A stretch of DNA of 64,000 bases from Phycisphaerae bacterium (GTDB lineage Bacteria > Planctomycetota > Phycisphaerae > SM23-33): the NCBI GenBank assembly GCA_016782885.1, contig JADHXQ010000003.1:18316-82315 (forward strand), written 5' to 3'. Below the pieces are notes generated by a model. It had not been told where the DNA came from. It searched no databases and saw only the letters and a list, made by a program, of their open reading frames with translations. Shown here piece by piece: positions 17,411 to 44,828 of this stretch. How positions within the stretch are numbered: position 1 is the first letter of the stretch; each line of letters begins with the position of its first letter. The translations under genes and the position numbers were made by a program.

Positions 17411-17430
17411 TATAGATTGGGAGTTGAGCT

Positions 17431-22607: not shown

Positions 22608-22642
22608 ACCACGCCAGAAAAGCCCCACAGGAGCAACAACCG

Positions 22643-25600: not shown

Positions 25601-26074
25601 TGCCACAGCCCAAAGGACGGCAAGAAGCCCAAAGCCGATCTGGACCTGTCGGGCACGATGACAACGCTCTTCAGCGTATCCTACGAAAACCTCCTGAAGC
25701 GAAGGAGATACGGTCTGTTCCCAATGATCCGCGAGAACCATCCCAAAGCCGGCAATACGCATTATCTACCGGCAAGATCGCTCGGTTCGCACGCGAGCCT
25801 GCTGATCGCCATGCACTCCAAGGGCAAGGTCAAACTCAAGGACCCCAAACTGGCCGAAGATGCGAAAAAACTCGCAAAGGTGCATGAGAAGGTGAACCTC
25901 CCGCCGGAGGACATGGTCCGCCTGTCGACCTGGGTCGACTCCAACGGACAATACTACGGCAGCTACTACGGACGGCGGAACCTGAAGTACAAGGACCATC
26001 CGAACTTCCGCCCGATCCCGACATTCGAGAGCGCAAGATCGACCACCGCCCCCCTGCCCGAAGACCAGAGATAG
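22643..26074 (+). CDS. family member 3: LamG/concanavalin-like N-terminal domain plus the beta-propeller/di-CxxCH core
   Basis: The start is placed at the ATG at 22643, which has an AGGAG ribosome-binding site and a signal peptide MSKTTIRHITPLVFVVVIGAMFTGAVGA. The N-terminus has LamG-like features (DGKWHHVAV...TIYVDGK...IDDMRIYNRAL). CMGCHETP and HCIKCHSPKDGKKPKADLDLSG are present. Confidence 0.75.
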   Translation: MSKTTIRHITPLVFVVVIGAMFTGAVGADYVKKATWVESMIATREAMVGKRPPSKAPTGLPNLAKDSYTIAAWICTKSGGTIFAKCQPNRGWQRFGKTLFVAGGRVNMDVHSAGVFRGTSNVADGKWHHVAVAGTKKGQTIYVDGKAEAKGNLRGDYDPKGAVGKIGYTSPNFPGRNSYFTGLIDDMRIYNRALGEKELKGVMTKPHSLGANGLAGHWPFDSGVLDASGNNNHATSMKGAKLSNGKIGRALDLNGQVKILLAAPGQKQNPNIPIWSFLRKAFTDDAARNEMTWEIQDGIWRNDWKPGDYAALAKRYATASHRSPKHAEQAAKLAKGVEDASALAKVRQAYLRSRAYESVMEKLKELDIVGLRRMLANLAKTGAKIDKNLARLDAIETRAVKMADTEITPEAMIAFKREVQQIRYDALIKGNPLMDFEKLLFVKRFKYQSNHYYTDFINGCSKFGGNLCVLDLKSGDVIDLIPEMKEGIFGRFDLHFNADRIVFAWKAEREEGFRIYEVPIDPKTGKRTGNVRQVLAAPHNEKDIQKKYRVGYHHGTDDMNPVYLPDGGIVFISSRCQYGILCDGPDIFCTTLLYRIDADGNNLQKLTNSAVSEATPTILNDGRIMYTRWEYLDKGSVTNKCLWAVRPDGTGQAEIYGSDIAYPASFHQGRAIPGTNTKFVFLGVPHYPQNGVGTVIRIDMTKNIRTREPMTYITPDVDVRGQGGFWHDREGKWGPHRLFKEPFPLSEEFFLVSMNVEKNWKHPTAWDICLLSESGDTAVIHSDPEIGVFQPIPLKKRKMPAILKGALNPELAKKGLAVCVVTDIYHGMEDTPRGSIKYIRINEQVPRPWASRRRWGGDTSDQQHVTITGATHLGLKIQVGVVPVEKDGSAHFYVPADKNVFFQALDENYMEVQRERTCVNYRPGESRSCMGCHETPNEIVSARQKVVTALKRKPSSPGPQPGEKSGSKPLYYPIDVQPVLDKHCIKCHSPKDGKKPKADLDLSGTMTTLFSVSYENLLKRRRYGLFPMIRENHPKAGNTHYLPARSLGSHASLLIAMHSKGKVKLKDPKLAEDAKKLAKVHEKVNLPPEDMVRLSTWVDSNGQYYGSYYGRRNLKYKDHPNFRPIPTFESARSTTAPLPEDQR

Positions 26075-26082
26075 TTCGGGTG

Positions 26083-27165
26083 CTAATGGGCCCGGAGAAG
26101 GTCCAGCATTTTGCGGTCCAGTTTGTGGTTTTTGTAGTCTTCGTACTTGACGTCCGTTCGCCCGGAGTCGAGCAGGCCGAACGAGCCTCGGAAATTCCAC
26201 AGCGCCCATCCGAAGTCCGCTTCGGCCCATAGTTCAAGGAGATCGGTCATCCATCGCAGCACCACATCGTGAGGAGTGTATTTGTACGCCCCCCACTCGC
26301 CCACGTGTACGCCCACGCCGGCGGCTGCGAGCTTCTTCCAGGGCTTGATGCGGTTGTCATAAATCCACTGTCGCCCTTCGACGATATCCTTCTTGCCCTG
26401 GCGCCGTTTGAGAGGCCAGGTCGGCGGAGAGCCCCAGTCCTTCCTGCCGGCCCATCCGGCCTTGTAGTGCGAGACCTTGAATGAATCGTACCCGCGAGTG
26501 CTCTGGGCGACGCGGTCCTTGGCTAGTTCCCAGACGGGGTCGCGACCCCATTGGAGACCGTCGGAGATGACGAGGCGAGTCGGATCGATCTTGCGAATGG
26601 CTGCGATGGCGACCTTGGCAGCGGCGGCGTAAGTTTTGGAATCGATTTTGGCAGGCTCGTTCACCAGACCGAAGCTGAGGCGTTTGGACGGGATACCGCG
26701 ATAGCGCTTTGCAAATGCTGCCCACTGGAAGGCAAACTGCTTCTGTGCCTCGGGGTCCTTCCAAAGGTTCAGCTTCTCCGGCGGATGGGCCACAGTGTAG
26801 CCCGGCGCCCGGTGAAGGTTCAGCGATACATGCACGCCGTACTTCTTTCCGAACTCGACGGCCTGGTCGATGTGGGCGAGTATCTTCTCGTCCAGTTTGT
26901 AAGGGTCGGCCGCGCCGGTCCAACAGCGGTAGTCCATCGGCAGGCGGACGAAATCGAAGCCCCAGTCGCTAAGCCACTGAAAATCCGTCTCGACGAACTT
27001 GCGATTCTTGCCCTTGTTGAACTTTTCAAGGAGATTGAATCCTCGCCACCTGGGCAGTTTTGCATGGAGTGCTTTGGCGGCGGTCGGAGCCTTGGCCTGG
27101 GCGAAAACTCCGGCGCCGACCACGACCGCCCCGGCGGCTGACTGGACAAACTCTCGCCTGTTCAT
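26083..27165 (-). CDS. glycoside hydrolase family 5 (cellulase-like), Tat-secreted
   Basis: N-terminal NRREFVQSAAGAVVVGAG. Catalytic acid/base motif LVNEP and nucleophile motif VGEWG at typical GH5 spacing. Confidence 0.75.
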   Translation of the reverse strand: MNRREFVQSAAGAVVVGAGVFAQAKAPTAAKALHAKLPRWRGFNLLEKFNKGKNRKFVETDFQWLSDWGFDFVRLPMDYRCWTGAADPYKLDEKILAHIDQAVEFGKKYGVHVSLNLHRAPGYTVAHPPEKLNLWKDPEAQKQFAFQWAAFAKRYRGIPSKRLSFGLVNEPAKIDSKTYAAAAKVAIAAIRKIDPTRLVISDGLQWGRDPVWELAKDRVAQSTRGYDSFKVSHYKAGWAGRKDWGSPPTWPLKRRQGKKDIVEGRQWIYDNRIKPWKKLAAAGVGVHVGEWGAYKYTPHDVVLRWMTDLLELWAEADFGWALWNFRGSFGLLDSGRTDVKYEDYKNHKLDRKMLDLLRAH

Positions 27166-27185
27166 AAACGTCTCCTTCTTGTCCG

Positions 27186-29051
27186 CTACTCCCCGCCGCT
27201 CAAGTACGCCTCGATGGCCTGGATGAAATCGCCACCGTATTGCAGCAGTTTCTGGTCGCCCACACCGGTGATGTTTCGCATTTCGACCGGCGTGGTCGGC
27301 GTGTAGTGGGCCATCTCACGCAGCGTGCGGTCCGAGAAAATGATGAACGGGGCGAGATTTCGCTCCTGTGCGAGGCCCCGCCTTACCGTCCGCAACTGCT
27401 CGAAAAGCTCGCGGTCGAAATCGGTAATCTGCTGTTTGATCTGCTTGGCCTGTTTGCGGCGGGTCCGCGCGGGTTTGGGCACTTCGCGCTGGCGGAGAAC
27501 CTGGAACTCCCTCCGCCCGAACAGCACTTCTCGCCCCGCGGCGGTCAGGTGGAGCACGGGATACTCCCCGTCGGTTCGCACCACGCATCCCTGCGCCGTC
27601 AGATCGTCTATGATCCCCCGCCAGTACTGCTTGTCGCGGTCGGACCCGGCGCCATACGTTTTGAGCTGGTCGTGTTTCAGGTCGCGGATCTTCTGCGTGT
27701 TGGCGCCCATAACGACATCGGTAACATGGACGGCGCCAAACCGCTGTCCGGTCCGCATGATCGCCGACATGACGATCTGTGCCTCTCTGGTCGCATCAAT
27801 GCGGTCGACCGTGCCCGAGCAAACGTCGCATCCGGTGCAACCGCCGGCATCGAGCGTCTGGCCGAAATAACCGAGTATCTGGCTGCGGCGGCAGACGTTG
27901 ACCGTGGCGAAGTTCACCATCTCGTTGAGCTTGCCCGATGCGGTGGCACGCTGGGCGTCATCTTCCATCTGGTTGATGAAGTAGCGTATCTTTGGGATGT
28001 CGCCCCGCGAGTAGTACAGCACGCAGTGTGCCGGTTCTCCGTCGCGCCCGGACCGCCCGGTCTCCTGGTAATAACCTTCCATGTTCTTGGGCAGGTCGGC
28101 GTGGATCACAAACCGCACGTTGGACTTGTCAATCCCCATACCGAACGCCACCGTCGCGACAATCACCGTCACGTCGTCGCGATTGAAAGCCTCCTGGTTG
28201 GCCTTGCGGACTTCGTCTTCAAGCCCCGCGTGGTAAGGACGGGCGTTCACGCCGTTGCGCACCAACTCGCGGGCTGTCTCCTCGACCGATTTGCGGGTGG
28301 TTCGGTAGATGATCCCCGCCTCGTCCTTCCGGTCGGACAGGAAGGTGAGTATCTGGTCGTCCACGTCGCCTTTGGGCACTACCTGGTACGAGAGATTGGG
28401 ACGGTTAAACGACGCCCGCGTAACGTGCGGATCGCGCAGGGTGAGCCTGTCGATAATATCGTCCTGAACGCGCGGGGTGGCGGTGGCGGTGAATGCGGCC
28501 ACCGGAGAATCGCCGAATTCAGACACGATCCGCGAAAGCGAGAGGTAGTCCGGTCTGAAATCGTGCCCCCACTCGCTTATGCAGTGTGCCTCGTCGACGG
28601 CGAAGAGGCTGATTGGCACGGTTTTCAGGACGTCGAGAAAGCCCGGCGCAGCGAACCGCTCGGGCGCCACGTACAGCAGATCGAGTTTCCCGGCCGACAA
28701 CTCTCGCGAGACGCGCGTCCGCTCGGCGGAGTCCAAGGAACTGTTGAGGAACTCGGCGGCCAGACCGTTGACCTTCGCCGCATCGACCTGGTCCTTCATC
28801 AGCGAGATCAGCGGACTTATCACCACGCACGTGCCGTCGAGCAGGTACGCGGGCAACTGGTAGCACAACGACTTGCCCCCGCCAGTCGGCATGACGGCGA
28901 AGACGTCCCGCCCGGAGACGATCGCCCGAACGATATCCTCCTGGTTATCCCGAAAACCGTGAAACCCAAAGACGTTACTCAAAGCTTTGGTAAAATCGTT
29001 TTCGCCGTTCTCTGTTTGCGATGAATCAGTCATAACGCTCCAGCACAACAC
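27186..29051 (-). CDS. recQ: ATP-dependent DNA helicase RecQ
   Basis: FGFHGFRDNQEDIV...VMPTGGGKSLCYQLPA (Walker A), DEAHCISEWGHDFRPDY (DEAH box), zinc-binding C-x-C region and a C-terminal HRDC-like region. Confidence 0.9.
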   Translation of the reverse strand: MLCWSVMTDSSQTENGENDFTKALSNVFGFHGFRDNQEDIVRAIVSGRDVFAVMPTGGGKSLCYQLPAYLLDGTCVVISPLISLMKDQVDAAKVNGLAAEFLNSSLDSAERTRVSRELSAGKLDLLYVAPERFAAPGFLDVLKTVPISLFAVDEAHCISEWGHDFRPDYLSLSRIVSEFGDSPVAAFTATATPRVQDDIIDRLTLRDPHVTRASFNRPNLSYQVVPKGDVDDQILTFLSDRKDEAGIIYRTTRKSVEETARELVRNGVNARPYHAGLEDEVRKANQEAFNRDDVTVIVATVAFGMGIDKSNVRFVIHADLPKNMEGYYQETGRSGRDGEPAHCVLYYSRGDIPKIRYFINQMEDDAQRATASGKLNEMVNFATVNVCRRSQILGYFGQTLDAGGCTGCDVCSGTVDRIDATREAQIVMSAIMRTGQRFGAVHVTDVVMGANTQKIRDLKHDQLKTYGAGSDRDKQYWRGIIDDLTAQGCVVRTDGEYPVLHLTAAGREVLFGRREFQVLRQREVPKPARTRRKQAKQIKQQITDFDRELFEQLRTVRRGLAQERNLAPFIIFSDRTLREMAHYTPTTPVEMRNITGVGDQKLLQYGGDFIQAIEAYLSGGE

Positions 29052-29222
29052 CCTAACGCCATACGAACATTGGATATTTTACACACTCGGCGCCCCGCCG
29101 CAAGCACAAATCCGGAACAACTCGGCGTGATTTTTTTTCGATGCTGCCGAGTTGGCGGTTGTTCTGTAGAATGGGAGAATGAAGAATGAGGGCTGAGACA
29201 AGACCACAGCAGGAGACCCATC

Positions 29223-30416
29223 ATGAAGACAACTCATCTGAAATCTGCGACCGGGGCGGGCGTGATCACCGCATGGATGTTTCTGGCGGCGGTGACGGTT
29301 GATATATCAACTGGCGACAAGAAGCCCCCCGCCATGCCGCGCGGGTACACGATTCCGACGATAGACCTCTCCGCCCAGACCCATCGCCAGGTGATCGTCG
29401 ACCGCGAGGAGGGTCAATATCTGGGCCATCCGACGACCGTGCTGCTCGAGGATAACAAGACGATGATCTGTGTCTACCCCAAGGGCCACGGGCGCGGCGC
29501 GATCGTCATGAAACGCAGCACGGATGCGGGCAAGACCTGGTCTGAGCGCCTCAAGACGCCCAAGACCTGGGCGACCAGCAAAGAAGTGCCCACCCTCCAC
29601 CGCGTGATCGACGCCAAGGGCGTAAAGCGACTGATCATGTTCTCGGGGCTCTATCCCTGCCGGATGGCGGTCTCGGAAGATGACGGAAAGACGTGGAGCG
29701 AGCTGAAACCGCTTGGCGACTGGGGCGGTATCGTCTGCATGGGCGACGTGATGGCGCTCAAGAAGCCCGGATGCTACATGGCGATGTTCCACGACGACGG
29801 GCGATTCTTCACGAAGCCACCAAAGCGTTACAAACCGCGGAGAATGACCGTCTACACAACATTCTCGACCGATGGCGGGCTCACGTGGAGTTTTCCAACA
29901 GAGATCTTCCATCGATCGGATGTCGGTCTGTGCGAGCCGGGCATGATCCGCAGCCCTGACGGCAAGCAGATCGCCGCGCTGTTTCGCGAGAACTACCGCG
30001 TGCGAAACTGTCACGTTATCTTCTCGGACGACGAGGGCAAAACGTGGACGGCTCCGCGCGAACTGCCCGCGTCGTTCACCGGCGACCGCCACAAGCTTCG
30101 CTACGCGCCGGACGGGCGCCTGATCGCGACGTTCCGCGACAAGACGCTACAATCGCCGACGCCGGGAGATTGGGTAATGTGGGTCGGACGCTACGAGGAC
30201 ATCGTCAAAGGCCTCCCAGGCCAATACCGCGTGCGCCTGATGGACAACAAACGCGGTTCGGACTGCGCCTACCCGGGCCTGGAACTCCTGAGCGACGGTA
30301 CGTTTGTGGCGACCACGTACGGGCACTGGACCGCGGGGCAGAAACCGTACATCGTTTCGGTGCGATTCAAACTTGCCGAAATTGACGCCTTGGCACGCAA
30401 GCAGGCACCCAACTGA
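29223..30416 (+). CDS. BNR/Asp-box repeat protein (sialidase / GH33-like)
   Basis: Four Asp-box motifs S-x-D-x-G-x-T-W (STDAGKTWS, SEDDGKTWS, STDGGLTWS, SDDEGKTWT). N-terminal signal/TM segment. Confidence 0.7.
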   Translation: MKTTHLKSATGAGVITAWMFLAAVTVDISTGDKKPPAMPRGYTIPTIDLSAQTHRQVIVDREEGQYLGHPTTVLLEDNKTMICVYPKGHGRGAIVMKRSTDAGKTWSERLKTPKTWATSKEVPTLHRVIDAKGVKRLIMFSGLYPCRMAVSEDDGKTWSELKPLGDWGGIVCMGDVMALKKPGCYMAMFHDDGRFFTKPPKRYKPRRMTVYTTFSTDGGLTWSFPTEIFHRSDVGLCEPGMIRSPDGKQIAALFRENYRVRNCHVIFSDDEGKTWTAPRELPASFTGDRHKLRYAPDGRLIATFRDKTLQSPTPGDWVMWVGRYEDIVKGLPGQYRVRLMDNKRGSDCAYPGLELLSDGTFVATTYGHWTAGQKPYIVSVRFKLAEIDALARKQAPN

Positions 30417-30421
30417 AGCGA

Positions 30422-31051
30422 TCAGTGAGGATGTTCTTCCTTGATGTGGGCGAGTTGGTTCTTGATCGCGGCGATCTGCTCGGCCCGCGTCTCGCGCGAG
30501 GCCAGCGGATCGAACTTGAAGTATATCGCGGTGGCAGTCCCGATTGCCTCGTAGGCGTTACGACGGGTATCGGCGTCGGTATCACCCAGTGCTTCCACGA
30601 GCGAATTAATGGCTGCGGGGTTATGCAGGCGTTTGAGCCCTATTCCCGCCCCGGCCCGCGCCTTTGGGTCTTCGTCCTTCAGGAGGATATCGGTCAGCAG
30701 GCGATAATCTGCTTTCTCGAAATTGCCCAGTTCCGCGGCGGCCCTGCCGCGAAGCACACCGCTTTTGTTCCTGGCGACAATTTGCTCCAGTTTCCACCGA
30801 CTAACTTCGTCGGTCCTGCTTCCAATCGCACGTATCGCCGCTATGGCGACTCGCGGTTCGACATCGCCGACAAGTTTGGCGAGGGTTTCGAGAGACTCAC
30901 TGTCACTTCTACCGACCAACTCGCCTACAGCCCTCAGGCGTTCATGCATCTCGGGGGATTTCGGATCGGCATGAGCCGGCCACCACAGCACAACTAACCC
31001 GGCGACCAGGGCAAAAAAGGTAAGCAGTCCCACTCTAATTATTGGGGTCAT
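30422..31051 (-). CDS. HEAT (PBS-lyase-type) repeat protein with an N-terminal TM anchor
   Basis: Repeated alpha-helical HEAT-like units (VRWKLEQIVARNKSGVLRGRAAAELG..., PKARAGAGIGLKRL..., TDADTRRNAYEAIG). Confidence 0.55.
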   Translation of the reverse strand: MTPIIRVGLLTFFALVAGLVVLWWPAHADPKSPEMHERLRAVGELVGRSDSESLETLAKLVGDVEPRVAIAAIRAIGSRTDEVSRWKLEQIVARNKSGVLRGRAAAELGNFEKADYRLLTDILLKDEDPKARAGAGIGLKRLHNPAAINSLVEALGDTDADTRRNAYEAIGTATAIYFKFDPLASRETRAEQIAAIKNQLAHIKEEHPH

Positions 31052-31071
31052 AGTGGTTGCACCTGTCTCCC

Positions 31072-32100
31072 CTAGGGAGCCCAGAGTCCCGCGGGTACGT
31101 TAACTGTGTACTCGTCGTATTCATACTGCAACTGCTCGCGAGTCATCGACCTGACGCTTCCGTCGACCGTCACGAAATTGGCATGGTCGAAGTGGCGGGT
31201 CCGCAGGAATCCATTTTTGTCCTCGTTGCTGCTACCGAATTCGTCAGTGCGGTATCCCTGCCTGTTCACTTTGGCAACATCTTTGGTATACTCCACGAGC
31301 ATCAACTGCCCGGGGCGGGGAGCAGCGTTGGCGACCGCGTCGCTCATAGCATAAGAAGCTTTCTGGAACCCCACTGTATAGTCATCCCACTTCCTGGTGT
31401 ACCTCGGGCCCGACTGAAAACGCATGACAAAAATATTGGGATCGGGAGCAGGAGTGGCTTCTGCCGATGCACTGGCTCCTTCCAGCCCCGCTTCGACCCG
31501 GTTGCGCCAATCCGCAGACCCGTCGTCAAGGCACAACCAGTGTACGCTGGCGCAACCGTGTGTGGCATCGATGATCATCGACTCAAACGTGGCGACACCA
31601 CCACCGTACGTCACCCGCATCATGGCACATTCACTACCGACCTGGATAAGCGCCTGGCCCTCCTCAGCCGTTATTCCATGGGCGCTGCTGCTGCATCTGA
31701 CCTGTACGTCCTCGAATGAACTGCCCGTTTCCAGAATCTCCTTTATGTTCGAGAAGCGCACGTCGCTACCCTGCTTCTGCACCAGGTAGAGGTCTTCAAG
31801 GTCGGGCAAATTTTCGGGTTCGGCCTCAGAATCAGCATCGGGGTCCGACGGACAGGTCAGGACGCCACCCAAACCGCGATTCATCAGGAACCAACGCCAC
31901 CCCGACGGATAGGGACGCTGACCGGGAGCCGAGTTAATCCCCTGGGCCATCTCCTTGAGATTATTCCTGCAGGCGGTCGCCCGGGTGTGTTCCCGAAAGT
32001 TCTCGAACGTCGGAATCAGCAGCATCACTAACAGCACAAGAACTGCAAGAACAACAAGAAGTTCTACAAGAGTAAAACCGTATCTTCCGAGATTGTTCAT
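31072..32100 (-). CDS. DUF1559 protein with a prepilin-type N-terminal cleavage/methylation motif
   Basis: N-terminus GFTLVELLVVLAVLVLLV. C-terminal H-x9-DG-like motif RHFDHANFVTVDGSVRS. The start is placed at the ATG at 32100 (MNNLGRYGFTL...). Confidence 0.75.
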   Translation of the reverse strand: MNNLGRYGFTLVELLVVLAVLVLLVMLLIPTFENFREHTRATACRNNLKEMAQGINSAPGQRPYPSGWRWFLMNRGLGGVLTCPSDPDADSEAEPENLPDLEDLYLVQKQGSDVRFSNIKEILETGSSFEDVQVRCSSSAHGITAEEGQALIQVGSECAMMRVTYGGGVATFESMIIDATHGCASVHWLCLDDGSADWRNRVEAGLEGASASAEATPAPDPNIFVMRFQSGPRYTRKWDDYTVGFQKASYAMSDAVANAAPRPGQLMLVEYTKDVAKVNRQGYRTDEFGSSNEDKNGFLRTRHFDHANFVTVDGSVRSMTREQLQYEYDEYTVNVPAGLWAP

Positions 32101-32184
32101 GTCTTGCACCAAAACCCTGCCGCACACAACAATGCAACTACCCAACTCTCATAATGATATCAAACTCGACGGAGAACACAATAT

Positions 32185-33642
32185 TCACTTGTTGCGTTTG
32201 GTTCTGGACGGCCTGTGCGAACCGGGATGCCGGCCCCACTGGGCTGCTTTGTCCGAATCGTAGTTGGGATTCTTCTTCGGTAGGCGGGCGTTTACGGATT
32301 TCCGCCATGCGCTGAGTTTCTGCTGGAGTTCCTTGACCTTGCCGGGCATCCTGGCGGACAGATCGTTGGACTCGCCTATATCGTCTTTGAGATTGTACAA
32401 CTCGAAGCGGCTTGGCCCGGTGTCGAAAAACTCGATCAGCTTCCAGTGCCCCTGTCGAATCGCGCCGGCCGGCGTCGAATGATGGTACACCGGATAATGC
32501 CAGTAAACCGCGTCGCGCGTGAGCTTACCGCCGCGGTCCAGGAGCGGTGCGATGCTCTCGCCGTCCAGCACGTGATCGACCGGTCGCCTGGCGCCGGCGA
32601 TGTCCAGGAACGTCGGATAGAAGTCAACGCTGGTGACCGGCTCGCCGCAGGTGGCGCCCGCTTTTACTTTTCCAGGCCAGCGGACGATCAGCGGTTCGCG
32701 GATGCCCCCCTCGTAGAGCGTGCCCTTTTCGTCGCGGAGCGGTGCGTTGGTCGTGACGATCGGACCGATCTTCCTGAAATGCCGCCTCAGTCCGCCATTG
32801 TCGGAGAAGAATACCACCACGGTATTGTCGGCGAGTTTGAGTTCGTCGAGTTTGTCGAGGATGCCCCCCACGCTGTCGTCAACGTGTTCGATCATGGCCG
32901 CGTAGGTCGGGTTGTTGACGCCTCTGGGCGGTTTGGTTTTTTTCTCGTACTTGGCGATGAGTTTTTTGCGGGCCTGAAGCGGAATATGCACAGCGTAATG
33001 CATCACATACAGGAAGAACGGGCGGTCCCTGTTGGCTTCGATGAACTTGACGCCGCGAGCGGTAATCGCTTCGGCGAGGTAGTCATCTTTGGTCAACTTG
33101 ATATTCGGCGTGGTGGAGTTGCCGAAGTGCCTTCCCCCGCCGGCGACGACCATAGTATCGAAGCCCTGCGCGTCGGGCAGGCGCCCCTTACCGCCGAGAT
33201 GCCACTTGCCAAACGCGCCGCACGCATATCCGGCGGACTTCAGTGTTTCGGCCAGCGTTACCGATTTCAGTGGCAGGTACTGCTGGCGGTTGATCGGGAC
33301 GGTGAGTTTCTCGAACGGGCGCCAGTGTCCCGGGATGAAGTCGATTATCCCCACACGGGCGGGATACTGTCCCGATACGATGCTCGCTCGCGTCGGTGAG
33401 CATACCGGGCAGGCGGCGTAAGCGTCGGTGAACCGCATACCCTGGGCGGCAAGGCGGTCGATGTTGGGAGTCTCGTTGAACTTGTTCCCGTAGCACCCGA
33501 CGTCAGACCAGCCAAGATCGTCGATCAGGAAGAACACGAAGTTAGGCTTGCGCGCGGCGGTCTTGGCCTTTGCGCCAGATTCGATCGCCAGCGCAAGAGC
33601 GCCGGCGCCAATCGCCTTGAGAAACTCTCGCCTGTTTTTCAT
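32185..33642 (-). CDS. sulfatase (formylglycine-dependent arylsulfatase family), Tat signal
   Basis: CSPTRASIVSG is the C-x-P-x-R formylglycine motif. Metal-binding FFLIDDLGWSD follows a twin-arginine leader MKNRREFLKAIGAGALA. The start is placed at the internal ATG at 33642. Confidence 0.85.
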   Translation of the reverse strand: MKNRREFLKAIGAGALALAIESGAKAKTAARKPNFVFFLIDDLGWSDVGCYGNKFNETPNIDRLAAQGMRFTDAYAACPVCSPTRASIVSGQYPARVGIIDFIPGHWRPFEKLTVPINRQQYLPLKSVTLAETLKSAGYACGAFGKWHLGGKGRLPDAQGFDTMVVAGGGRHFGNSTTPNIKLTKDDYLAEAITARGVKFIEANRDRPFFLYVMHYAVHIPLQARKKLIAKYEKKTKPPRGVNNPTYAAMIEHVDDSVGGILDKLDELKLADNTVVVFFSDNGGLRRHFRKIGPIVTTNAPLRDEKGTLYEGGIREPLIVRWPGKVKAGATCGEPVTSVDFYPTFLDIAGARRPVDHVLDGESIAPLLDRGGKLTRDAVYWHYPVYHHSTPAGAIRQGHWKLIEFFDTGPSRFELYNLKDDIGESNDLSARMPGKVKELQQKLSAWRKSVNARLPKKNPNYDSDKAAQWGRHPGSHRPSRTKRNK

Positions 33643-33650
33643 AGCGTCAA

Positions 33651-36572
33651 TTACTCGACCGAAGGCATCACCAGCCCGCCTCGGGCCTGTTTTTCGGTCT
33701 CCAGGTATGCGCCGTAGAAGTTCGTGTTGCAGTCGATCCACAGCGTGATGCGGTAAAGCTCTTCGGGGGTGAGTTTCAGGTCGTGGTGCCCTTTGGGGCC
33801 GGTCAGGTGCGCCAGCAGCCTGGAGGCCTTGGCGCCGATCTTGCCCGGAACCGAACGAGAGTTACCGTTCTTGAAGAGCGCTCCGTTTCCGCCCGACTTG
33901 CCCCATCCGTATTTGTGGAGCGTCTCGAACGCCTTGGACCAACCGCCTCGCCCGAACTGCTTGCCGGAAAGGTTGGGAGCCTTTTTCTTCGCATTCTTCA
34001 CGTGGCATGGGAGGCACTTCTTGTCGATCACGGGCTGGACAAGGCGAGGGAACGTCAGCGGGAACGAACCTTCGACGTCAGGCTTGATCTTCGACGGAGG
34101 CCGCTTCAACGCCTGAGCCACCGTCATCTTTCTCTTCGCGCCGGACATGCGCAGCTTGGGCTCGTGGCAGCCCTGGCAGGCGAGCTGTTCGCTTTCGTGA
34201 ACGTAGGTGTTTGACTTCATCGACTGGATGGCCTGTCCCTGGGCATCGAGGGCCTGGAAGTAGATCGGAACACCGACCGGGGCTTCGAAGTATACGCTTC
34301 CGTCGGACTCGACGGGCACGGTCCCCAGCACACCGCGAGCCAGCGACTGTGCGGCAAGTCCGATCGCCGGTTGATTGGCGTTGTGGGTGGCCTTGGGGAA
34401 CAGTTGCACAATACGCATGGAAGTCACTTTCGCCCCTTCAGGCCACTTGAAATCGCTGTCGTAAATGTTCATCACCGAAATAGTGGCCGGACGCTTGGGC
34501 ATCAGGGCCTTGTCCTCGACCGCCTGGGTAGTCATTGACGGAATGATCCTCGGTTTGGTTCGCGGACGAAGCGGGATCGGGTCGAGGCACGGTACGCTCG
34601 GATCGCGATAGAGTATCTCCCTGTTACCGAAGCTGTCCATCAGGCACAGCGCGTAATGCCTCTGTCCCGGATCGTAGACGCACAGGTAGTAGTCTTCGCT
34701 GAGAGGCCAGGGCTGGCCGTAAACTTCACCGCCGTTGTTCCTGCCTCTGCCCAGGGCAATACCGGGGATCTTCTCGGATTCAGTGAGTTGCACGTCGGGC
34801 GTGATTCGTTTGAGCTGGCTCATGGCGTTGTCGTCCGGGATCTGGTGGTCGATGAGCACCATCGATCCGTAGTTCTGCCCGTGGTGCGGCGCCGAGACGC
34901 CGATGTAACGGTGCGATCCGGGGATGGCGCGGTTCGCCAACTCCATCCACGGGCGCATTTCGCGCCTGATGGGATAGTTTCCGTGGTAGCTTCTGGCGTC
35001 GCGCCCGTCAGGATACGTCACCCATATATGGTGGGCGATGTCGCTGTCGCGGTCCACATAGTCCCATCGCGAATAGACGATCATCCCGTTGTTGTCGACG
35101 CTGGGATGCCACTCGTTGGTCTCGTGATAGCTGATGGGGATAATGTCGCTCCCGTCGTCCCTCATCGTGTGGAGCGTGTAGGTCGGCACGGGGCGCCCGT
35201 GACATCGCCCGAACCCGCCGCGGCGTTCGGAAATAAACACTATCCTCCCGCTCGGCAGGAAGCACGGGTCGAAATCGTTGGTCTTCCCGTCGGTCAGTTG
35301 CGTCAGGTTGACCGGCTTGCCGGGTGCTATGTTGGCTTTGAATATGTGATACGTGCTCTGCTCGGACCACTTGTACTTCGTGTTGAGAGCCTCGGTCCAC
35401 GCGAACAGGATGGTCTTTGCGTCGTAGCTCAACTCGAGCGACATGTGCGAACCTTCGGCCAGGGTCTTGCCCTTGAGGCGCCCGTTCCGGATCTTCTCTC
35501 CCTTCAGAAGGTCGCGAGCGACAGGCTTGTCGCTGAAGGCGTTTTCAAGGACGTAGATGCTCCCGCCCTTCCTGGCGTGAAAACCGAAGTACTGGTCGCA
35601 CATGTGCCCGTGCGTCTTGTGGTGCGTGGCGAAAATGATCTTGTCGAAATTGACCAGGGGATTCGAAAACGCGATCTGTCTGCGGACCTTGCAGATCTCG
35701 GCGAACAGTTTCTTGCGTGCGTCCGCGTCGTCAACCGGAACCTGGGCGGCCTGCGTTTTGAATCCCGCCAACTGCGCAGAGTGTTTCGACAGGTCCGGGG
35801 CGTCTTTCATCTTCTTGATATCTTCGAGAAGCGCCGCAGTTCTCCTCAGGACCACGTCTACCGGGTCGCGGTCTTCCATAAACAGGAGAGCAGGCTTGCG
35901 GAACACTTCCGCCGCCAGGCGGTCGTAATGATCTCCGCCGGCTTTGCGAACCCTGAGACGACCGGCGATCAGACCGAATTCATCGTCCAGGGAACCGCCC
36001 GGCGCACGCGAGTGCGATCGGGAGCGGGAAGCGGATTTGCGGGCCTTGGAGAGAGTCGGAAGCTTCGTTTTGCCCGCCTCGATCTTACCGGCGACCACAA
36101 CCGCTCCCCACTTGCCCGCCGAGCCGATAGCAAACTTCTGACCGTTCGTAAAATCACACTGGAAAACCGTCCAGGAGTTGCTTCCATTGGCGTCGCCGCC
36201 GGTCATCTTACCGGCCTCTTTCCACTCACCGGGCGCCTTGAGACTGGCCGGGGTCAGACCGTCGGTCAGGCAGACGTACATTCGCCCGCCGACCTTGACG
36301 GAACCCGAAACGCTCACGGACTCCTTGTGCGGGTGCGAGATGTAATTGAGACCCTGGAGACATTTGGGGACTTTCGTGAAAGCGTAATCGCGATTGGAGT
36401 TGACCAGCGCCCGTTCACCCATCTTTCCGGCGGCCAGTTTCTTGTTGCCCTGCACGGTGATTTCAGCGTGCGAGCAGGCGACTTCGGCCTGCACAAACAG
36501 CAACGGGGCAAGCCCCAGCAGTACGGCCGATATGACGATCAGTTTCCACTGGTTAATCCTGAGATAACTCAT
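33651..36572 (-). CDS. family member 4: N-terminal beta-sandwich (like member 1) plus the beta-propeller/di-CxxCH core
   Basis: The start is placed at the ATG at 36572, which has an AGGAGA ribosome-binding site and a signal peptide MSYLRINQWKLIVISAVLLGLAPLLFVQA. CQGCHEPK and KCLPCHVKNAKKKAPNLSG are present. It ends 8 bp before the sulfatase gene on the same strand. Confidence 0.7.
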   Translation of the reverse strand: MSYLRINQWKLIVISAVLLGLAPLLFVQAEVACSHAEITVQGNKKLAAGKMGERALVNSNRDYAFTKVPKCLQGLNYISHPHKESVSVSGSVKVGGRMYVCLTDGLTPASLKAPGEWKEAGKMTGGDANGSNSWTVFQCDFTNGQKFAIGSAGKWGAVVVAGKIEAGKTKLPTLSKARKSASRSRSHSRAPGGSLDDEFGLIAGRLRVRKAGGDHYDRLAAEVFRKPALLFMEDRDPVDVVLRRTAALLEDIKKMKDAPDLSKHSAQLAGFKTQAAQVPVDDADARKKLFAEICKVRRQIAFSNPLVNFDKIIFATHHKTHGHMCDQYFGFHARKGGSIYVLENAFSDKPVARDLLKGEKIRNGRLKGKTLAEGSHMSLELSYDAKTILFAWTEALNTKYKWSEQSTYHIFKANIAPGKPVNLTQLTDGKTNDFDPCFLPSGRIVFISERRGGFGRCHGRPVPTYTLHTMRDDGSDIIPISYHETNEWHPSVDNNGMIVYSRWDYVDRDSDIAHHIWVTYPDGRDARSYHGNYPIRREMRPWMELANRAIPGSHRYIGVSAPHHGQNYGSMVLIDHQIPDDNAMSQLKRITPDVQLTESEKIPGIALGRGRNNGGEVYGQPWPLSEDYYLCVYDPGQRHYALCLMDSFGNREILYRDPSVPCLDPIPLRPRTKPRIIPSMTTQAVEDKALMPKRPATISVMNIYDSDFKWPEGAKVTSMRIVQLFPKATHNANQPAIGLAAQSLARGVLGTVPVESDGSVYFEAPVGVPIYFQALDAQGQAIQSMKSNTYVHESEQLACQGCHEPKLRMSGAKRKMTVAQALKRPPSKIKPDVEGSFPLTFPRLVQPVIDKKCLPCHVKNAKKKAPNLSGKQFGRGGWSKAFETLHKYGWGKSGGNGALFKNGNSRSVPGKIGAKASRLLAHLTGPKGHHDLKLTPEELYRITLWIDCNTNFYGAYLETEKQARGGLVMPSVE

Positions 36573-36808
36573 GCATGACTCTCCTGGTAGGTTCGGTTCG
36601 CATAATAACAAGCGTATTATACTCCTATCATAACGTTTATTGAAACCTATTCCTTGCCTGTTACTGTAATATCGCCCGTTCTGGGAATACAGAATAGGGA
36701 ATACGGAGTCTTGCGAAACGTTACACTATGCGTATGATGCACGGACTGTCGAAAGACGAATAAACAACCGTAGCCCATTCGGACTGCACTGCACAAGGAG
36801 ACTCACCC

Positions 36809-37840
36809 ATGAAGCGTATCGTATTATCTCTGATCGCCGCAATCACGCTGACCTCGACCATCACCAGTATCTCCATGGCGGCCCCCAAAAAGGCTCCCGC
36901 CGCCCCGCCGAAACCGCCGGTCCTGGACCCGTCCAAAGTGGACAAATACACCGGCGAATATGCCGGCGAGTTTGTGGTCGACGGGAAGAAAGGCGAAGGG
37001 CTCGCCCAGGTCATCGCCGAAGGCAAAGGGCAATACCGCGCCGTGCTGATGCGCGGTCTGTGGAAAACCGCCAAGGACGCCAGGCAGGTTCGCATCGAAC
37101 TGACCGGAAAAGTCGACGCCGACGGGAACGTTCCGCTGGAAGGCAAGGGGTGGAAAGGCACGCTGATCGGGCGTAAAACTCTTGTCGCCAAAGCGGACAA
37201 AGGCTCGTTCGATGGCAAGTGGACCGTCCGCAAGAGCCCCACGCTCGCCGCCAAACCGCCCAAGGGCGCCATCGTCCTCCTGCCGTTTGAGCCCGCCAAA
37301 GAGCCCAATATGGACGAATGGGCCAACAAGAAATGGATCCCCCTGACCAACGGCGCGATGCGGGTCGGGCGAGGATCGAACTTCACCAACCGAAAGTTCG
37401 GATCGGTCACACTGCACATCGAGTTCCGCTGCCCCTACGAACCGACCAGGCGCGGACAGGGACGCGGAAACAGCGGCGTGTATCTCCAGAAACGCTACGA
37501 AGTGCAGGTGCTCGAATCGTTCGGGCTGGCGAGCAAGTCAAACGATTGCGGTTCAATCTACAAAGTGGCGAACACCAAAATCAACGCCTGCCTGCCCCCG
37601 CTGCAGTGGCAGACGTACGACATAGAATTCAGCAACGCGGTGATCGGACCCGACGGGAAAGCCAAGACCCCTCCGATGATGTCCGTCAAGCACAATGGTA
37701 TCGAGACGCACAAAGACCAGGTGCTGCCCGGAAAGACAACCGCAGCGGCCGCCAGCGGACTGACCGTCAAGGACTCGCTGATGCTGCAGGACCACGGTAA
37801 CAAGGTCGAGTATCGGAACATCTGGATCGTGGAAAAATGA
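36809..37840 (+). CDS. secreted DUF1080 (3-keto-disaccharide hydrolase-like) domain protein
   Basis: Signal peptide. The C-terminal half matches DUF1080 (RKFGSVTLHIEFR...NSGVYLQKRYEVQVLES...WQTYDIEF...PMMSVKHNGIETH...LMLQDHGNKVEYRNIWI). Confidence 0.75.
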   Translation: MKRIVLSLIAAITLTSTITSISMAAPKKAPAAPPKPPVLDPSKVDKYTGEYAGEFVVDGKKGEGLAQVIAEGKGQYRAVLMRGLWKTAKDARQVRIELTGKVDADGNVPLEGKGWKGTLIGRKTLVAKADKGSFDGKWTVRKSPTLAAKPPKGAIVLLPFEPAKEPNMDEWANKKWIPLTNGAMRVGRGSNFTNRKFGSVTLHIEFRCPYEPTRRGQGRGNSGVYLQKRYEVQVLESFGLASKSNDCGSIYKVANTKINACLPPLQWQTYDIEFSNAVIGPDGKAKTPPMMSVKHNGIETHKDQVLPGKTTAAAASGLTVKDSLMLQDHGNKVEYRNIWIVEK

Positions 37841-37892
37841 CGCATCCGGTGAAAACCGGCAAATAGAATACCGCCGCACGAGGAGAACTATC

Positions 37893-39389
37893 ATGATTCG
37901 CAGAATACGCCTGTCCGTGATGTTCCTTATTCTCACTGCCGCTTCGATGAATGTCTGTCTCAGCGCCGATAAGACCGCGGATGGATGGCCCGGATGGCGA
38001 GGGGCTAATCGTGACGGCAAATCAAGCGACTCCGGGCTGCTGAAAAGCTGGCCCGAAGACGGGCCCGGGCGGCTCTGGTCGCTGTCGGGCATAGGCACCG
38101 GTTACTCCAGCGTGTCGGCAGGCGGCGGGATGATCTATACCGCCGGGCACAAGGGCGGGCAGTTGTATCTGACGGCGGTCGGTATGGACGGTAAGGTCAA
38201 GTGGAGCAAGGGTGTAACGTCCGCCACCGGTAAGGGGCCCAAAGGGGCTCGCGCCACACCCACCTACGATGGCGGTAATTTGTACATGGAGTCGGGCGAC
38301 GGCGTCGTCGGGTGCTACGACGCAAAGACCGGCAGGCAGAAATGGACGCATGAATTCAAGGAGTTCGGCGGGCGCACGCCGGGATGGGCGTTCTCCGAAT
38401 CGGTGCTGATCGTCGGTAATCTGGCGATAGTCAGCCCCGGTGGCACGAACTTCATGGTCGCGTTCAACAAAACCACCGGCGCGGTGGTTTGGAAGTCGGG
38501 GCAGTACGGTTCGGCGCACTATTGTTCGCCGATCTACGTGGTCTACCTCGACGTCCCGATGATCATCAACGGAGGCCGCAACGGACTGATCGGCGTCAGC
38601 GCAAAGACCGGAAAGATTCTCTGGACGCAGGATTTCGCCACGGGCAACACCGCCAACTGCCCCACACCGGCGTTCTCGGACGGATATGTGTTCTGGTCGG
38701 TCGGTTACGGTAAGGGTGCAATCTGCGTGAAACTGTCGGTCTCGGGTACTCGCGTGTCAGCCGCCACCGCATGGAAAACCCGCGACATGGTCTGTCACCA
38801 CGGCGGATACGTTATCCTTGACGGATATATTTACGGTAATCACAGCGGAGGATGGACCTGCCTGGACCTCAAGACCGGACGCAAGCAATGGTACGAGCGA
38901 GGTGTGGGCAAAGGTTCGCTATGCTACGCCGACGGTATGCTGTATACATTCGGTGAAAAGGGCGGAAAAGCCGGTCTGGCCGCGGTATCGCCAAAGGGCT
39001 TCGAGCTTACGGGCACGGTCTCAGTCAGAGGAAGCGGACCAAGCTGGGCTCATCCGGTGGTCACCGGCGGAAGGCTCTACCTGCGATACGACGACAACCT
39101 CTACTGCTTCGATGTAAAGGACCCGGCGAAATTTGTCGCAAAACTCCCCGTCGCCATCAAAACGCTGACAACGAAAGACCCAATTGTCAGAACCAAACCC
39201 AAGCCCCCAGCCGCCACCGACGCCAATACAAAAGCTGCAAGGCAACTCAAACTGGCCGAAGCATATCTCATCGCCGGTCTGAAAGCCAAAGCCGCAGACA
39301 TACTGAAGAAACTCGTCGCCGATTTCCCGAACACCAAAGCCGCCAAGGCGGCAACAAAGAAACTCCAGGAACTCACCGGCGGAAAATAA
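37893..39389 (+). CDS. PQQ-like repeat beta-propeller protein (BamB-family-like), secreted
   Basis: Signal peptide followed by a WPGWRGANRDGKS motif, then repeated propeller-blade motifs. Confidence 0.65.
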   Translation: MIRRIRLSVMFLILTAASMNVCLSADKTADGWPGWRGANRDGKSSDSGLLKSWPEDGPGRLWSLSGIGTGYSSVSAGGGMIYTAGHKGGQLYLTAVGMDGKVKWSKGVTSATGKGPKGARATPTYDGGNLYMESGDGVVGCYDAKTGRQKWTHEFKEFGGRTPGWAFSESVLIVGNLAIVSPGGTNFMVAFNKTTGAVVWKSGQYGSAHYCSPIYVVYLDVPMIINGGRNGLIGVSAKTGKILWTQDFATGNTANCPTPAFSDGYVFWSVGYGKGAICVKLSVSGTRVSAATAWKTRDMVCHHGGYVILDGYIYGNHSGGWTCLDLKTGRKQWYERGVGKGSLCYADGMLYTFGEKGGKAGLAAVSPKGFELTGTVSVRGSGPSWAHPVVTGGRLYLRYDDNLYCFDVKDPAKFVAKLPVAIKTLTTKDPIVRTKPKPPAATDANTKAARQLKLAEAYLIAGLKAKAADILKKLVADFPNTKAAKAATKKLQELTGGK

Positions 39390-40402: not shown

Positions 40403-41407
40403 TCACGGCCGCCATGCTTTGGGATGCAAACGCGGGCTGATTTCCAGTGGTGTGGCGGTCTTTACCGATCCGTCAGACAGCAGGTAGTTGACCTTGTCGA
40501 AGTGCCGGGCGCTCTGCAGCAGCAGTCCCTCTGACTCCAGCGGAATGTCGACGTCGACCATCGACTCCTGGTAGTCCACCAGCACTATGCAACCGCCGCC
40601 CGTTGAATATTGGAACGCGTAGGTGTTGATTCCGTAATTGGTCAACCTCTCGCCCCAGTTTGCCAGGGTGAACGACTGTCCGCGAGCGTCCTGCATCCTT
40701 CCGTTTCCGGTAAGAGAGGGCTCACCGTTATACCATATCTGGTTCATGTTGGGGCACGTGTTGATACGATCGGGCCAACCGGGACCATGATTGGGTCCCC
40801 ATGCAGGCACGCACCCGACCGTGTCTTCTCTCAGATCCTTGAAGATATATATCCGACCCGAATCGTAAATGCGTCCACTGCCGTCAGAGTCAACCCAGCC
40901 ATTGAAGTTCATCAGCGCGTACTGCCCGTTGCTGTTCGTATCGTCCTGCATCATGTACTCGGTGTAAGGCCCTTGCGAGTTGCGCCCACGCCTGGATTTG
41001 TAGCAGTTGCCATCTCCTATCGTGTCCAGCGGGTAATGCCCGTTCGGGCTGACGTATTCGACAGTCACCAACGACCCTGATACGGAAGACTGCTTGACCT
41101 CATCCTCGGGACATTGGAACAACTCAAGCTCCGTCACAACGTTGTTGGGAACGCTCGGCCACATCAGGCCCGTTGGATATAAACCGGCCGAATCCTTAGC
41201 CCCGGTGGAAAGGACACCCTCGCCGGATGTCGCGGTATCGCTGGCCAGAACGAAGCCTTGCCAGAGGCGATTGAGATTATTGCGACACTGCGTGGCGCGG
41301 TATATGGACATCACGGGGGTGAACGAGGGAATCAGCAGTACCGCCAGGAGTGCGATCAGCACGACCACCACAAGCAATTCGATCAATGTAAATGCGCCGC
41401 GTCTCAT
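40403..41407 (-). CDS. DUF1559 protein with a prepilin-type N-terminal cleavage/methylation motif
   Basis: N-terminus MRRGAFTLIELLVVVVLIALLAVLLIPSF. C-terminal HFDKVNYLLSDGSVKT, the H-x9-DG motif. Confidence 0.8.
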   Translation of the reverse strand: MRRGAFTLIELLVVVVLIALLAVLLIPSFTPVMSIYRATQCRNNLNRLWQGFVLASDTATSGEGVLSTGAKDSAGLYPTGLMWPSVPNNVVTELELFQCPEDEVKQSSVSGSLVTVEYVSPNGHYPLDTIGDGNCYKSRRGRNSQGPYTEYMMQDDTNSNGQYALMNFNGWVDSDGSGRIYDSGRIYIFKDLREDTVGCVPAWGPNHGPGWPDRINTCPNMNQIWYNGEPSLTGNGRMQDARGQSFTLANWGERLTNYGINTYAFQYSTGGGCIVLVDYQESMVDVDIPLESEGLLLQSARHFDKVNYLLSDGSVKTATPLEISPRLHPKAWRP

Positions 41408-41427
41408 GAGTAATTCCTCGAACGACT

Positions 41428-42156
41428 CTACCGCATGCCTCTCCGCTCAGGGTGCCAGTCTTTGCCCAGGATATCCTGCGGACGCATGACCAACTTCGCA
41501 CCCGCGGCGGCGTAAGCATCTCGCACTCGCCAACTCTGCTTCCACCGTTGGATCAGGTCGCGCCAACCGGGACCGTCCTTGGGATCGCGGTCCCTGGATA
41601 TCCTGACCCCAAACTTCCGCAGCAGGCCTTTCATCGCGATCAGCTTGGTCTCCCTGCTGGCGCCGTGCTCCGCCCGGTCCAGAAGCGCAACGATCGCTTT
41701 GGGATCGTCGCATCTGACCAGCCCGCGAAGAGCGGCCTGGCGAACCTTCTCCTCGGGCTCTTTCTTGACTATTTCGATCAGATCGGCGGTCGCGGTATTG
41801 TCGGCGTACAGGCCCATAACGTCAACCGCAATCGCCCGGACACCGGCGTTGGCGTCTTTAGTGCTCTTGCGGACAACTTCGCGGTGCTCAGGTTTCAGAA
41901 AGTGCGACAGACCCGCCAGCGCCTCGCGCCGAACTTTCGGCGACGGATCGGAAGCGGCCCGTGACAACATCTCGCCCGCACCCGGGGAACGATTGACCGC
42001 AATCTCACGAATCGCGTCGATACGCTGTGAAGGATCCCCGCTGGATACGTCGGGCGAACCGGCGGGAAGATACCTGACGGCGATCAGCGCGATAAGAACC
42101 ACCGCCACCACAACTGCCGCTACAGCCTTTCCGGAAATCCCATACATTGTCACCAC
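41428..42156 (-). CDS. HEAT (PBS-lyase-type) repeat protein with an N-terminal TM anchor
   Basis: Repeats such as PKVRREALAGLSHF, AGVRAIAVDVMG and EKVRQAALRGLVRCDDP. N-terminal hydrophobic helix. Confidence 0.6.
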   Translation of the reverse strand: MVTMYGISGKAVAAVVVAVVLIALIAVRYLPAGSPDVSSGDPSQRIDAIREIAVNRSPGAGEMLSRAASDPSPKVRREALAGLSHFLKPEHREVVRKSTKDANAGVRAIAVDVMGLYADNTATADLIEIVKKEPEEKVRQAALRGLVRCDDPKAIVALLDRAEHGASRETKLIAMKGLLRKFGVRISRDRDPKDGPGWRDLIQRWKQSWRVRDAYAAAGAKLVMRPQDILGKDWHPERRGMR

Positions 42157-44755: not shown

Positions 44756-44828
44756 CACGCCCGACAGGATTCGAACCTGTAACCCTCGGTTCCGAAGACC
44801 GATGCGCTATCCATTGCGCCACGGGCGC
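44756..44828 (-). tRNA. tRNA-Arg (anticodon UCG)
   Basis: The reverse complement folds as a cloverleaf. The acceptor stem is GCGCCCG paired with CGGGCGU. The D-arm is GCGCAATGGATAGCGC. The anticodon stem-loop is TCGGT-CTTCGGA-ACCGA. The T-arm is ACAGGTTCGAATCCTGT. The discriminator is G. CCA is not encoded. Confidence 0.85.

Follow-up and report, generated by a model that had tools for sequence, protein, structure and literature searches.

The 64,000-nt stretch of Phycisphaerae bacterium contig JADHXQ010000003.1 considered here (referred to at its full length as the window) carries six paralogous genes for proteins related to the hydrazine synthase subunit HzsA, designated members 1 to 6. The source is uncultured; its NadA, encoded in the window, is 100% identical to one from a metagenome-assembled genome that NCBI names "Phycisphaerae bacterium". 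Member 4 is followed on the same strand, after only 8 nt, by a gene for a putative formylglycine-dependent sulfatase. It begins with a β-sandwich module, called N4 here, and in a survey of the wider family adjacent sulfatase genes were concentrated beside the members that carry this module. The gene pair alone would be ordinary operon biology; its value lies in a sulfatase linkage that follows one N-terminal module, offering a testable way into a large family.

Member 4 occupies positions 33651–36572 of the minus strand (a 973-aa open reading frame, ORF), with a TAA stop at 33653–33651. The sulfatase gene, also on the minus strand, runs from an ATG at 33642 to position 32185 (485 aa), and the spacer between them (33643–33650) consists of the 8 nt TTGACGCT; the coordinates given in the original prediction for a same-strand 8-bp gap, with the stop at 33651 and the ATG at 33642, are therefore correct. 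The stop codon and the ATG begin 11 nt apart and the two frames differ, which rules out read-through or a fusion of the two proteins. Longer versions of both genes can be read. For member 4 a start at TTG 36611 is possible (986 aa), but ATG 36572 appears to be the better one, because the orthologs are 969–974 aa long and align over 100% of the 973-aa form, and because a Shine-Dalgarno (SD)-like sequence, AGGAGA, lies just upstream, 6 nt (TCATGC) from the ATG. The sulfatase frame stays open back to a GTG at 33741. ATG 33642 was taken as the start because a twin-arginine (Tat) motif, RREFLK (33616–33633), directly follows it, the N-terminus reading MKNRREFLK, and because gene calls in four related contigs agree.

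Bacterial genes this close together on the same strand are nearly always co-transcribed. In consensus scans of the minus strand neither a promoter-like nor a terminator-like site was found in or beside the gap, which had been named as the place to look for one, and the predicted RNA folding at the junction is unremarkable (z = -1.57). No SD sequence was found upstream of the sulfatase start, whereas member 4 has one (the AGGAGA above). Since a gap of 7–8 nt recurs in four related contigs (L082, L084, L004, and the P0004 contig, described below), the junction can be regarded as a real inherited feature and not the chance product of a single assembly. With the same strand, the 8-nt gap, the lack of a terminator or a sulfatase SD, and the junction kept in those contigs, the co-transcription originally proposed has good support for a proposal based only on sequence; member 4 and the sulfatase are in all likelihood transcribed together and probably translationally coupled. 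Coupling would be by termination and reinitiation, since the sulfatase ATG comes 8 nt after the upstream stop codon without a ribosome binding site of its own. The joint transcript would begin in the divergent promoter region that precedes 36572. This 236-bp intergenic region (36573–36808) contains promoter-like hexamers, including a perfect TATAAT, as well as the AGGAGA before the ATG at 36572, all of these being consensus matches only. On its far side is a plus-strand gene (36809–37840) for a DUF1080 (3-keto-disaccharide hydrolase-like) protein (Pfam E = 9.6e-29), a divergent neighbor at rank -1 that is kept in five orthologous loci (L003, L004, L006, L082, and L084).

The G+C content at third codon positions (GC3) is 0.775 in member 4 and 0.767 in the sulfatase gene, and 0.75–0.80 in most other window genes measured. 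The idea that the sulfatase is a compositionally foreign insertion was rejected, its GC3 being typical of the window.

The N-terminus of member 4 is a Sec-type signal peptide. The only domain that Pfam identifies in the protein is the HZS_alpha middle domain (PF18582; E = 2.7e-18; score 66.8 bits, cut-off 26.6), and the architecture was therefore read from an AlphaFold2 model built on an alignment of 78 sequences (predicted local distance difference test score, pLDDT, 90.3; predicted template-modeling score, pTM, 0.82). In order along the protein, all on the minus strand, these are the N-terminal β-sandwich N4 (aa 35–166; 36075–36470), which is unclassified and resembles accessory domains of the carbohydrate-binding module (CBM) type; a helical domain assigned from the secondary structure of the model (aa 174–302; 35667–36053); a six-bladed TolB/YWTD-like β-propeller (aa 312–667; 34572–35639); the β-rich HZS_alpha middle domain (34161–34484), which ends in heme motif 1, C799-Q-G-C-H803 (34164–34178); and a helical, cytochrome c-like C-terminal domain (33684–34115) with heme motif 2, C853-L-P-C-H857 (34002–34016). 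The most conserved motifs of the HzsA-related family (HETNEWHP, RWDYVDRD, and APHHG) sit in the propeller, as does C457. In the 78-sequence alignment the heme-motif residues C799, C802, H803, C853, C856, and H857 are invariant, and so are C457, H563, W945, and D947; H483, E487, D504/D507/D509, H514/H515, and H564 are likewise counted as invariant.

Homologs of member 4 are numerous (2053 proteins at E <= 1e-10). PF18582 is present in all of the matches listed, two of which NCBI calls "HzsA-related protein". They come from metagenome-assembled genomes (MAGs) of Planctomycetota, Kiritimatiellia, Lentisphaeria, Verrucomicrobia, Hydrogenedentota, and Sumerlaeota, and the HzsA-related family as such spans the Planctomycetota-Verrucomicrobiota-Chlamydiota (PVC) phyla, Hydrogenedentota, and KSB1, with Pontiella sulfatireligans and Persicirhabdus sediminis as cultured carriers. 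The nearest species-representative genome has a protein only 65% identical to member 4.

The top Foldseek match of the model is HzsA itself (5c2v_A; E = 5e-25, 814 aligned columns, target-normalized TM-score 0.60, 17% identity), which is also the sole multi-domain structural match, TolB-like propellers ranking next. The "heme protein" of the original prediction holds up, in that both CXXCH motifs are invariant in the 78 homologs and the HzsA fold is matched. As judged from its sequence, member 4 almost certainly belongs to the HzsA-related family as an exported di-heme protein and is no hydrazine synthase, because it scores far below the cut-off of the HzsA equivalog model (NCBIfam NF052339; 44.5 bits against 800, over residues 746–813 only), because the proximal Tyr591 of HzsA heme αI is replaced by Leu807 (CQGCHEPKLR in member 4 against CSGCHYGSYR in HzsA, by pairwise alignment), and because a scan of the large window ORFs revealed no HzsB/HzsC-like gene (a propeller with a CCP_MauG di-heme domain). 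His930 aligns with HzsA His772, the distal ligand of heme αII. Other HzsA homologs from outside the anammox bacteria likewise differ in key hydrazine synthase residues, and none has an experimentally confirmed function (PMC12758564; PMC10732223).

The downstream protein matches the Pfam families Sulfatase (PF00884; E = 3.4e-63) and SGSH_C (E = 7.6e-23). It has a Cys-type formylglycine signature, C81-S-P-T-R (33388–33402), and the metal-ligand motifs D41-D42 and D281-N282. Its closest solved relative is the κ-carrageenan sulfatase 9fo1_A of subfamily S1_16 (E = 5.8e-148, 55% identity over 432 positions); 6UST and 7OZA, both also described as S1_16 (PMC11760155), are among its other solved relatives. 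It is predicted to be a formylglycine-dependent S1 sulfatase, closest to subfamily S1_16, with a substrate suggested by homology. The enzyme in 9FO1, AMOR_S1_16A, is exo-acting and removes the 4-O-sulfate from the non-reducing-end galactose (Gal) of κ-carrageenan oligomers, and the subfamily also holds N-acetylgalactosamine (GalNAc)-6S and Gal/GalNAc-4S enzymes (PMC11760155). No other sulfatase gene is present in the window.

For a view of the family beyond this locus, 159 non-redundant family loci were taken from metagenome and species-representative genome collections, their ORFs were called, and the neighboring genes were clustered. N4 homologs were identified by an exhaustive HMMER search; a word-indexed search was discarded (it returned 2 proteins and missed evident full-length homologs). 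The isolated N4 and helical domains gave no Pfam match even at E <= 10. N4 is a β-sandwich accessory domain of a type common to carbohydrate-active enzymes (CAZymes), whose accessory domains it resembles, and elsewhere it is fused to CE4 and BNR enzymes. It behaves like a CBM-type accessory module and may bind glycans. It is present in 21 of the 159 loci and in member 1 of the window (17431–20229, plus strand); other paralogs in the window have different N-terminal modules, NPCBM in members 5 and 6 and Laminin_G_3 in member 3.

Sulfatase genes adjoin 7 of the 21 loci with N4 and just 4 of the 138 without it (p = 6e-5). Within the N4 loci they are found in 7 of 41 adjacent slots compared to 2 of 147 other slots (p = 3.8e-4), while the loci without N4 show no such concentration (4 of 238 adjacent slots, 11 of 629 others). 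The difference persists when loci are collapsed into lineages at 75% identity, with sulfatases adjacent in 4 of 14 lineages with N4 and 4 of 90 without (p = 0.011). In the four positive N4 lineages the sulfatases stand on differing sides of the HzsA-related gene and belong to different subfamilies, so that the adjacencies are regarded as independent acquisitions. Those outside the clade of member 4 are only 25–36% identical to the window sulfatase, and their best solved relatives are different ones: 7an1 and 7ana, presumably S1_20 3-O-Gal sulfatases, for L008 and L053, and yidJ- and choline-sulfatase-like proteins for L101. The 7an1 and 7ana entries belong to the mucin-sulfatase study of Luis et al. 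At these identities they were rejected as orthologs of the window sulfatase, which excludes co-evolution of one specific pair of proteins.

Other neighbors of N4-bearing members are of a compatible kind. In L085, which has a 68% identical relative of member 4, the convergent neighbor (12877–14658, minus strand, 593 aa) has an FGE-sulfatase domain (PF03781), the domain family that includes the formylglycine-generating enzymes (FGE) that mature Cys-type sulfatases. Heparinase II/III-like genes are neighbors of N4-bearing members in the window (15394–17388), in L090 (rank -1), and in L001/L005 (rank -3). The window example, on the minus strand and only weakly heparinase II/III-like, is divergently paired with member 1, and it is its homolog that stands beside the N4-type member in L090. 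Member 1 itself (N4 match E = 2.4e-36) appears to be about 52% identical to member 4 and has no sulfatase neighbor.

Literature searches found nothing relevant that links hydrazine synthase homologs to sulfatases or polysaccharides, and neither those searches nor the two papers on such homologs (PMC12758564, PMC10732223) mention the N4 module or a sulfatase link. A sulfatase linkage that tracks a specific, unclassified N-terminal module appears to be new. The chances that the pairing reflects a real theme of the N4 subfamily, in the processing of sulfated anionic glycans, and is not a neutral adjacency are put at about even.

The family as a whole gives a different picture. Most often the immediate neighbor is another HzsA-related gene (29 of the 279 adjacent slots), followed by sulfatases (11), DUF1080/3-keto-disaccharide hydrolase-like proteins (7), and GFO/IDH/MocA oxidoreductases (6). 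PQQ_2 propellers, HzsBC-like proteins (7 of the 159 loci), and prepilin-type N_methyl proteins (6 of the 159) were each found at a few loci. Sulfatases are 2.6-fold enriched at the adjacent slot relative to the rest of the flanks before orthologous loci are collapsed (odds ratio 2.6, p = 0.02), but afterwards the figure is 1.9-fold and not significant (p = 0.13), and enrichment across the whole family was for that reason rejected as evidence. Just one of the six window paralogs has a sulfatase neighbor. The original prediction had extended a role in processing sulfated polysaccharides to the family at large, and at that breadth it is unsupported. What stands is narrower: members with N4 have gained sulfatase neighbors repeatedly and independently of one another (the 4 of 14 against 4 of 90 lineages above).

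Whether related genomes keep the pair, a question raised along with the original prediction, has a divided answer. Ranked by the identity of their HzsA-related protein to member 4, L082 (95%), L084 (87%), and the P0004 contig (84%) all have the same gene order, a junction of 7–8 nt, and then N_methyl-like and HEAT-repeat genes, and L004 (82%) has the sulfatase at a 7-nt junction on a contig that stops within or just past the sulfatase. L003 (84%) and L006 (83%) are syntenic and have no sulfatase; the HzsA-related gene is separated by about 150 nt from the N_methyl gene, which a HEAT gene follows in L003, while the L006 contig stops within the N_methyl gene. Among the more distant relatives there is no sulfatase start past the stop codon in L166 (74%) or L167 (71%), the latter with a GC-rich hairpin at that point, and no sulfatase adjoins the homologs in L085, L001/L005, or L002 (68%, 64%, and 60%). 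Judged by the criterion that came with the original prediction, conservation of the pair is shallow. In a neighbor-joining tree L003 and L006 nest inside the sulfatase-bearing clade, and the simplest history is therefore one gain and one loss. This suggests that the sulfatase gene arrived recently, in the ancestor of the clade with at least 82% identity, and was later lost in one sub-lineage.

The comparison with L082 turned up one further feature. The two sequences are 100% identical over 12.6 kb (26001–38667) except for one tract inside member 4 (35300–36100, aa 164–362), which has 149 mismatches affecting 61 synonymous and 52 non-synonymous codons and lies within 1.1 kb of 86.7% identity. 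The linker past N4, the helical domain, and the first propeller blade fall inside the tract, which looks either like DNA imported by recombination or like a chimera of strains produced in assembly. Other relatives are not clearly nearer to one allele than to the other.

Downstream of the sulfatase two more genes continue in the same direction. The first (31072–32100, ATG at 32100, 84 nt past the sulfatase stop) encodes a prepilin-type N_methyl protein with a C-terminal H-X9-DG motif (DUF1559-like), and the second (30422–31051), 20 nt past it, a HEAT-repeat protein of 209 aa with an N-terminal hydrophobic segment. This is the last co-directional gene, the next one being convergent, and L003, L082, L084, and the P0004 contig likewise have it behind their N_methyl gene. 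Both genes have a lower GC3 (about 0.64–0.65), and they may or may not share the transcript of member 4 and the sulfatase. A second pair of HEAT and prepilin N_methyl genes lies at 40403–42156 on the minus strand, in the reverse order with HEAT first, and is kept in L003, L083, and L084.

These elements can be combined into a working model, for which the overall prospects are judged slightly better than even. The minus-strand block at 30422–36572 would supply an HzsA-related di-heme protein, an S1_16-like sulfatase acquired recently, an H-X9-DG prepilin-like protein, and a HEAT-repeat protein, and the first two would act on the same glycan. Member 4 would be exported by the Sec route and the sulfatase by the Tat route, so that they would meet outside the cytoplasm. 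There N4 would target member 4 to an anionic, sulfated glycan containing galactose or uronate, the co-exported exo-sulfatase would remove a terminal Gal/GalNAc O-sulfate, and the heme-propeller core would bind this same substrate or carry out a redox step on it. Heme 1 would be His-ligated, where the propeller meets the middle domain, and heme 2, probably bis-His ligated, would serve in electron transfer. The specific proposal of redox chemistry by the core on the glycan or on products derived from it, heme 2 relaying the electrons, is made solely because of the architecture and the invariant polar residues of the propeller, and is a tentative and rather unlikely one.

Several observations weigh against this model. 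The pair is restricted to a narrow clade, is dispensable in L003 and L006, and is absent from all of the relatives examined at 60–74% identity. Ten of the 14 lineages with N4 have no adjoining sulfatase, and the N4 sample is small and was picked by similarity to the query, so that the association is a lead and not proof. The family-wide enrichment did not survive collapsing, as noted, and no HzsA-related protein has a tested function (PMC12758564). In one alternative, in a genome rich both in HzsA-related genes and in genes for exported glycan enzymes, the sulfatase would have come to lie behind member 4 by chance and be co-transcribed with it, with no functional tie beyond a shared promoter. 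The gain and loss of the pair within the clade of at least 82% identity would then be expected, as would its absence beyond it, a single sulfatase neighbor among six window paralogs, and the insignificance of the family-wide figure; family neighborhoods are in any case extremely variable. Such an adjacency would not by itself account for independent sulfatase neighbors, of varied subfamilies and orientations, in 4 of 14 N4 lineages when the other 90 are unenriched. Nor can a general richness of these genomes in sulfatases be the explanation, since in the N4 loci the genes concentrate at the adjacent slot, and the tight junction without an SD sequence points to coupled expression. A purely neutral adjacency is considered somewhat unlikely.

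A second alternative to the working model takes member 4 to be non-catalytic, a glycan-capturing or electron-shuttling cytochrome in an envelope complex with the H-X9-DG and HEAT proteins, to which the sulfatase would be an optional addition. The HzsA-related, N_methyl, and HEAT genes do stay together in the clade of at least 82% identity with or without the sulfatase, a second HEAT and N_methyl pair is found nearby, and heme 2 looks like a bis-His electron-transfer heme. N_methyl neighbors are rare in the survey, however, and absent from the 60–74% relatives, and with their lower GC3 and an 84-nt gap containing promoter-like AT-rich sequence before them the N_methyl and HEAT genes may constitute a unit of their own. 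The propeller, moreover, is rich in invariant His, Asp, Arg, Trp, and Cys, as expected of an active site, and this alternative is quite improbable. That member 4 is instead a nitrogen-cycle enzyme, hydrazine synthase-like or converting hydroxylamine or nitric oxide, with the sulfatase irrelevant to it, is effectively excluded: HzsA is its only solved multi-domain structural relative and both heme motifs are kept, but against this stand the equivalog score, the leucine in place of Tyr591, the lack of an HzsB/HzsC-like gene among the large ORFs scanned, the six paralogs within 64 kb (several with NPCBM, LamG, or N4 modules) among neighbors that are glycan enzymes, and the absence from published homologs of residues key to hydrazine synthase function (PMC12758564; PMC10732223).

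Elsewhere in the window, members 1–3 are in tandem on the plus strand (17431–26074), with a convergent GH5 gene after them. Because the ORFs as called for members 2 and 3 share 145 nt, member 3 probably starts further downstream than its call. A plus-strand gene at 29223–30416, which converges on the HEAT-repeat gene, encodes a BNR-repeat protein of 397 aa. At the same position L084 has a 1242-aa HZS_alpha and BNR_2 fusion (15599–19327) and the P0004 contig an 889-aa HZS_alpha protein (15236–17905); the window gene may be what is left of another family member or a piece that split away from one. Genes for PQQ_2/BamB-like propellers form a tandem array at 5847–12214 (plus strand), with one at 37893–39389 (plus strand) listed in the same group. 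DUF1080 domains are encoded at 10718–12214, 36809–37840, and 61868–63193, joined in one case to a PQQ_2-like propeller and in another to a GDSL lipase; both the PQQ_2 and the DUF1080 families recur beside HzsA-related genes elsewhere. A tRNA gene (44756–44828, minus strand), the sole Rfam match in the window, is immediately downstream of member 5, and directly downstream of member 6 is a gene (59229–60242, plus strand) for a 337-aa protein with an IS200-like Y1 transposase domain and a C-terminal DnaA-type helix-turn-helix. A PEP-CTERM-anchored DUF6923 protein is encoded at 54450–55478 (minus strand).

Proteins with the HZS_alpha domain number in the thousands in Planctomycetota, Verrucomicrobiota, and neighboring phyla, and discussion of them has centered on a possible ancestry of the anammox enzyme. 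The present locus suggests caution in using HzsA-like matches in metagenomes as markers of nitrogen cycling. More broadly, HzsA-related proteins could be a large and so far unrecognized class of exported, modular, heme-dependent, carbohydrate-active redox enzymes of PVC-type bacteria, with interchangeable N-terminal modules (N4, NPCBM, and LamG) setting glycan specificity and the N4 subfamily acting on sulfated anionic polysaccharides together with sulfatases and heparinase-like lyases. As a general statement this is speculative and unlikely to hold in full; if it were true, anammox HzsA would be a specialized offshoot of a glycan-processing scaffold.

Another conserved pairing of an exported, multidomain heme-motif protein with a sulfatase-fold protein occurs in PVC bacteria, where planctomycete PSCyt/PSD proteins (DUF1549/DUF1553, with a c-type heme motif) are associated with DUF1501 proteins of the sulfatase superfamily. 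The heme protein has a different fold in the case of member 4 and its partner is a bona fide S1 sulfatase; the window genes scanned gave no Pfam match to PSCyt, PSD, or DUF1501. The partner can be compared with AMOR_S1_16A, which comes from a Bryobacteraceae MAG where its reported neighbors are glycoside hydrolase (GH) genes (PMC11760155). Like that enzyme, the window sulfatase has a Cys-type CSPTRAS motif, DD...DN ligands, a length of 485 aa, and an N-terminal signal. It differs in that its signal is of the twin-arginine type and the W79 conserved in S1_16 is a Phe (approximately aa 101, IIDFIPGH versus LTDWIPGR, at about 33330–33350).

HzsA (PDB 5C2V, chain A) shares with member 4 the six-bladed propeller, the HZS_alpha domain with the first CXXCH, and the cytochrome c-like C-terminal domain with the second, while the N-terminal β-sandwich of member 4 is an addition outside the aligned region. 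Heme αI of HzsA has its iron ligated by Tyr591 and the CXXCH histidine binding zinc, and it is at the position of that tyrosine that member 4 has Leu807. For the zinc-site Cys303 of HzsA the alignment gave no corresponding position. The genomic contexts also differ, anammox genes in the case of HzsA and glycan enzymes, with no β/γ partner gene among the window ORFs scanned, in that of member 4. The published clades I–IV of HzsA-related proteins were chosen for an adjoining HzsBC-like gene (PMC12758564; PMC10732223). Member 4 stands apart from them in having no such partner among the window ORFs scanned, and also in that, unlike them, it retains both heme motifs and the position of the distal histidine.

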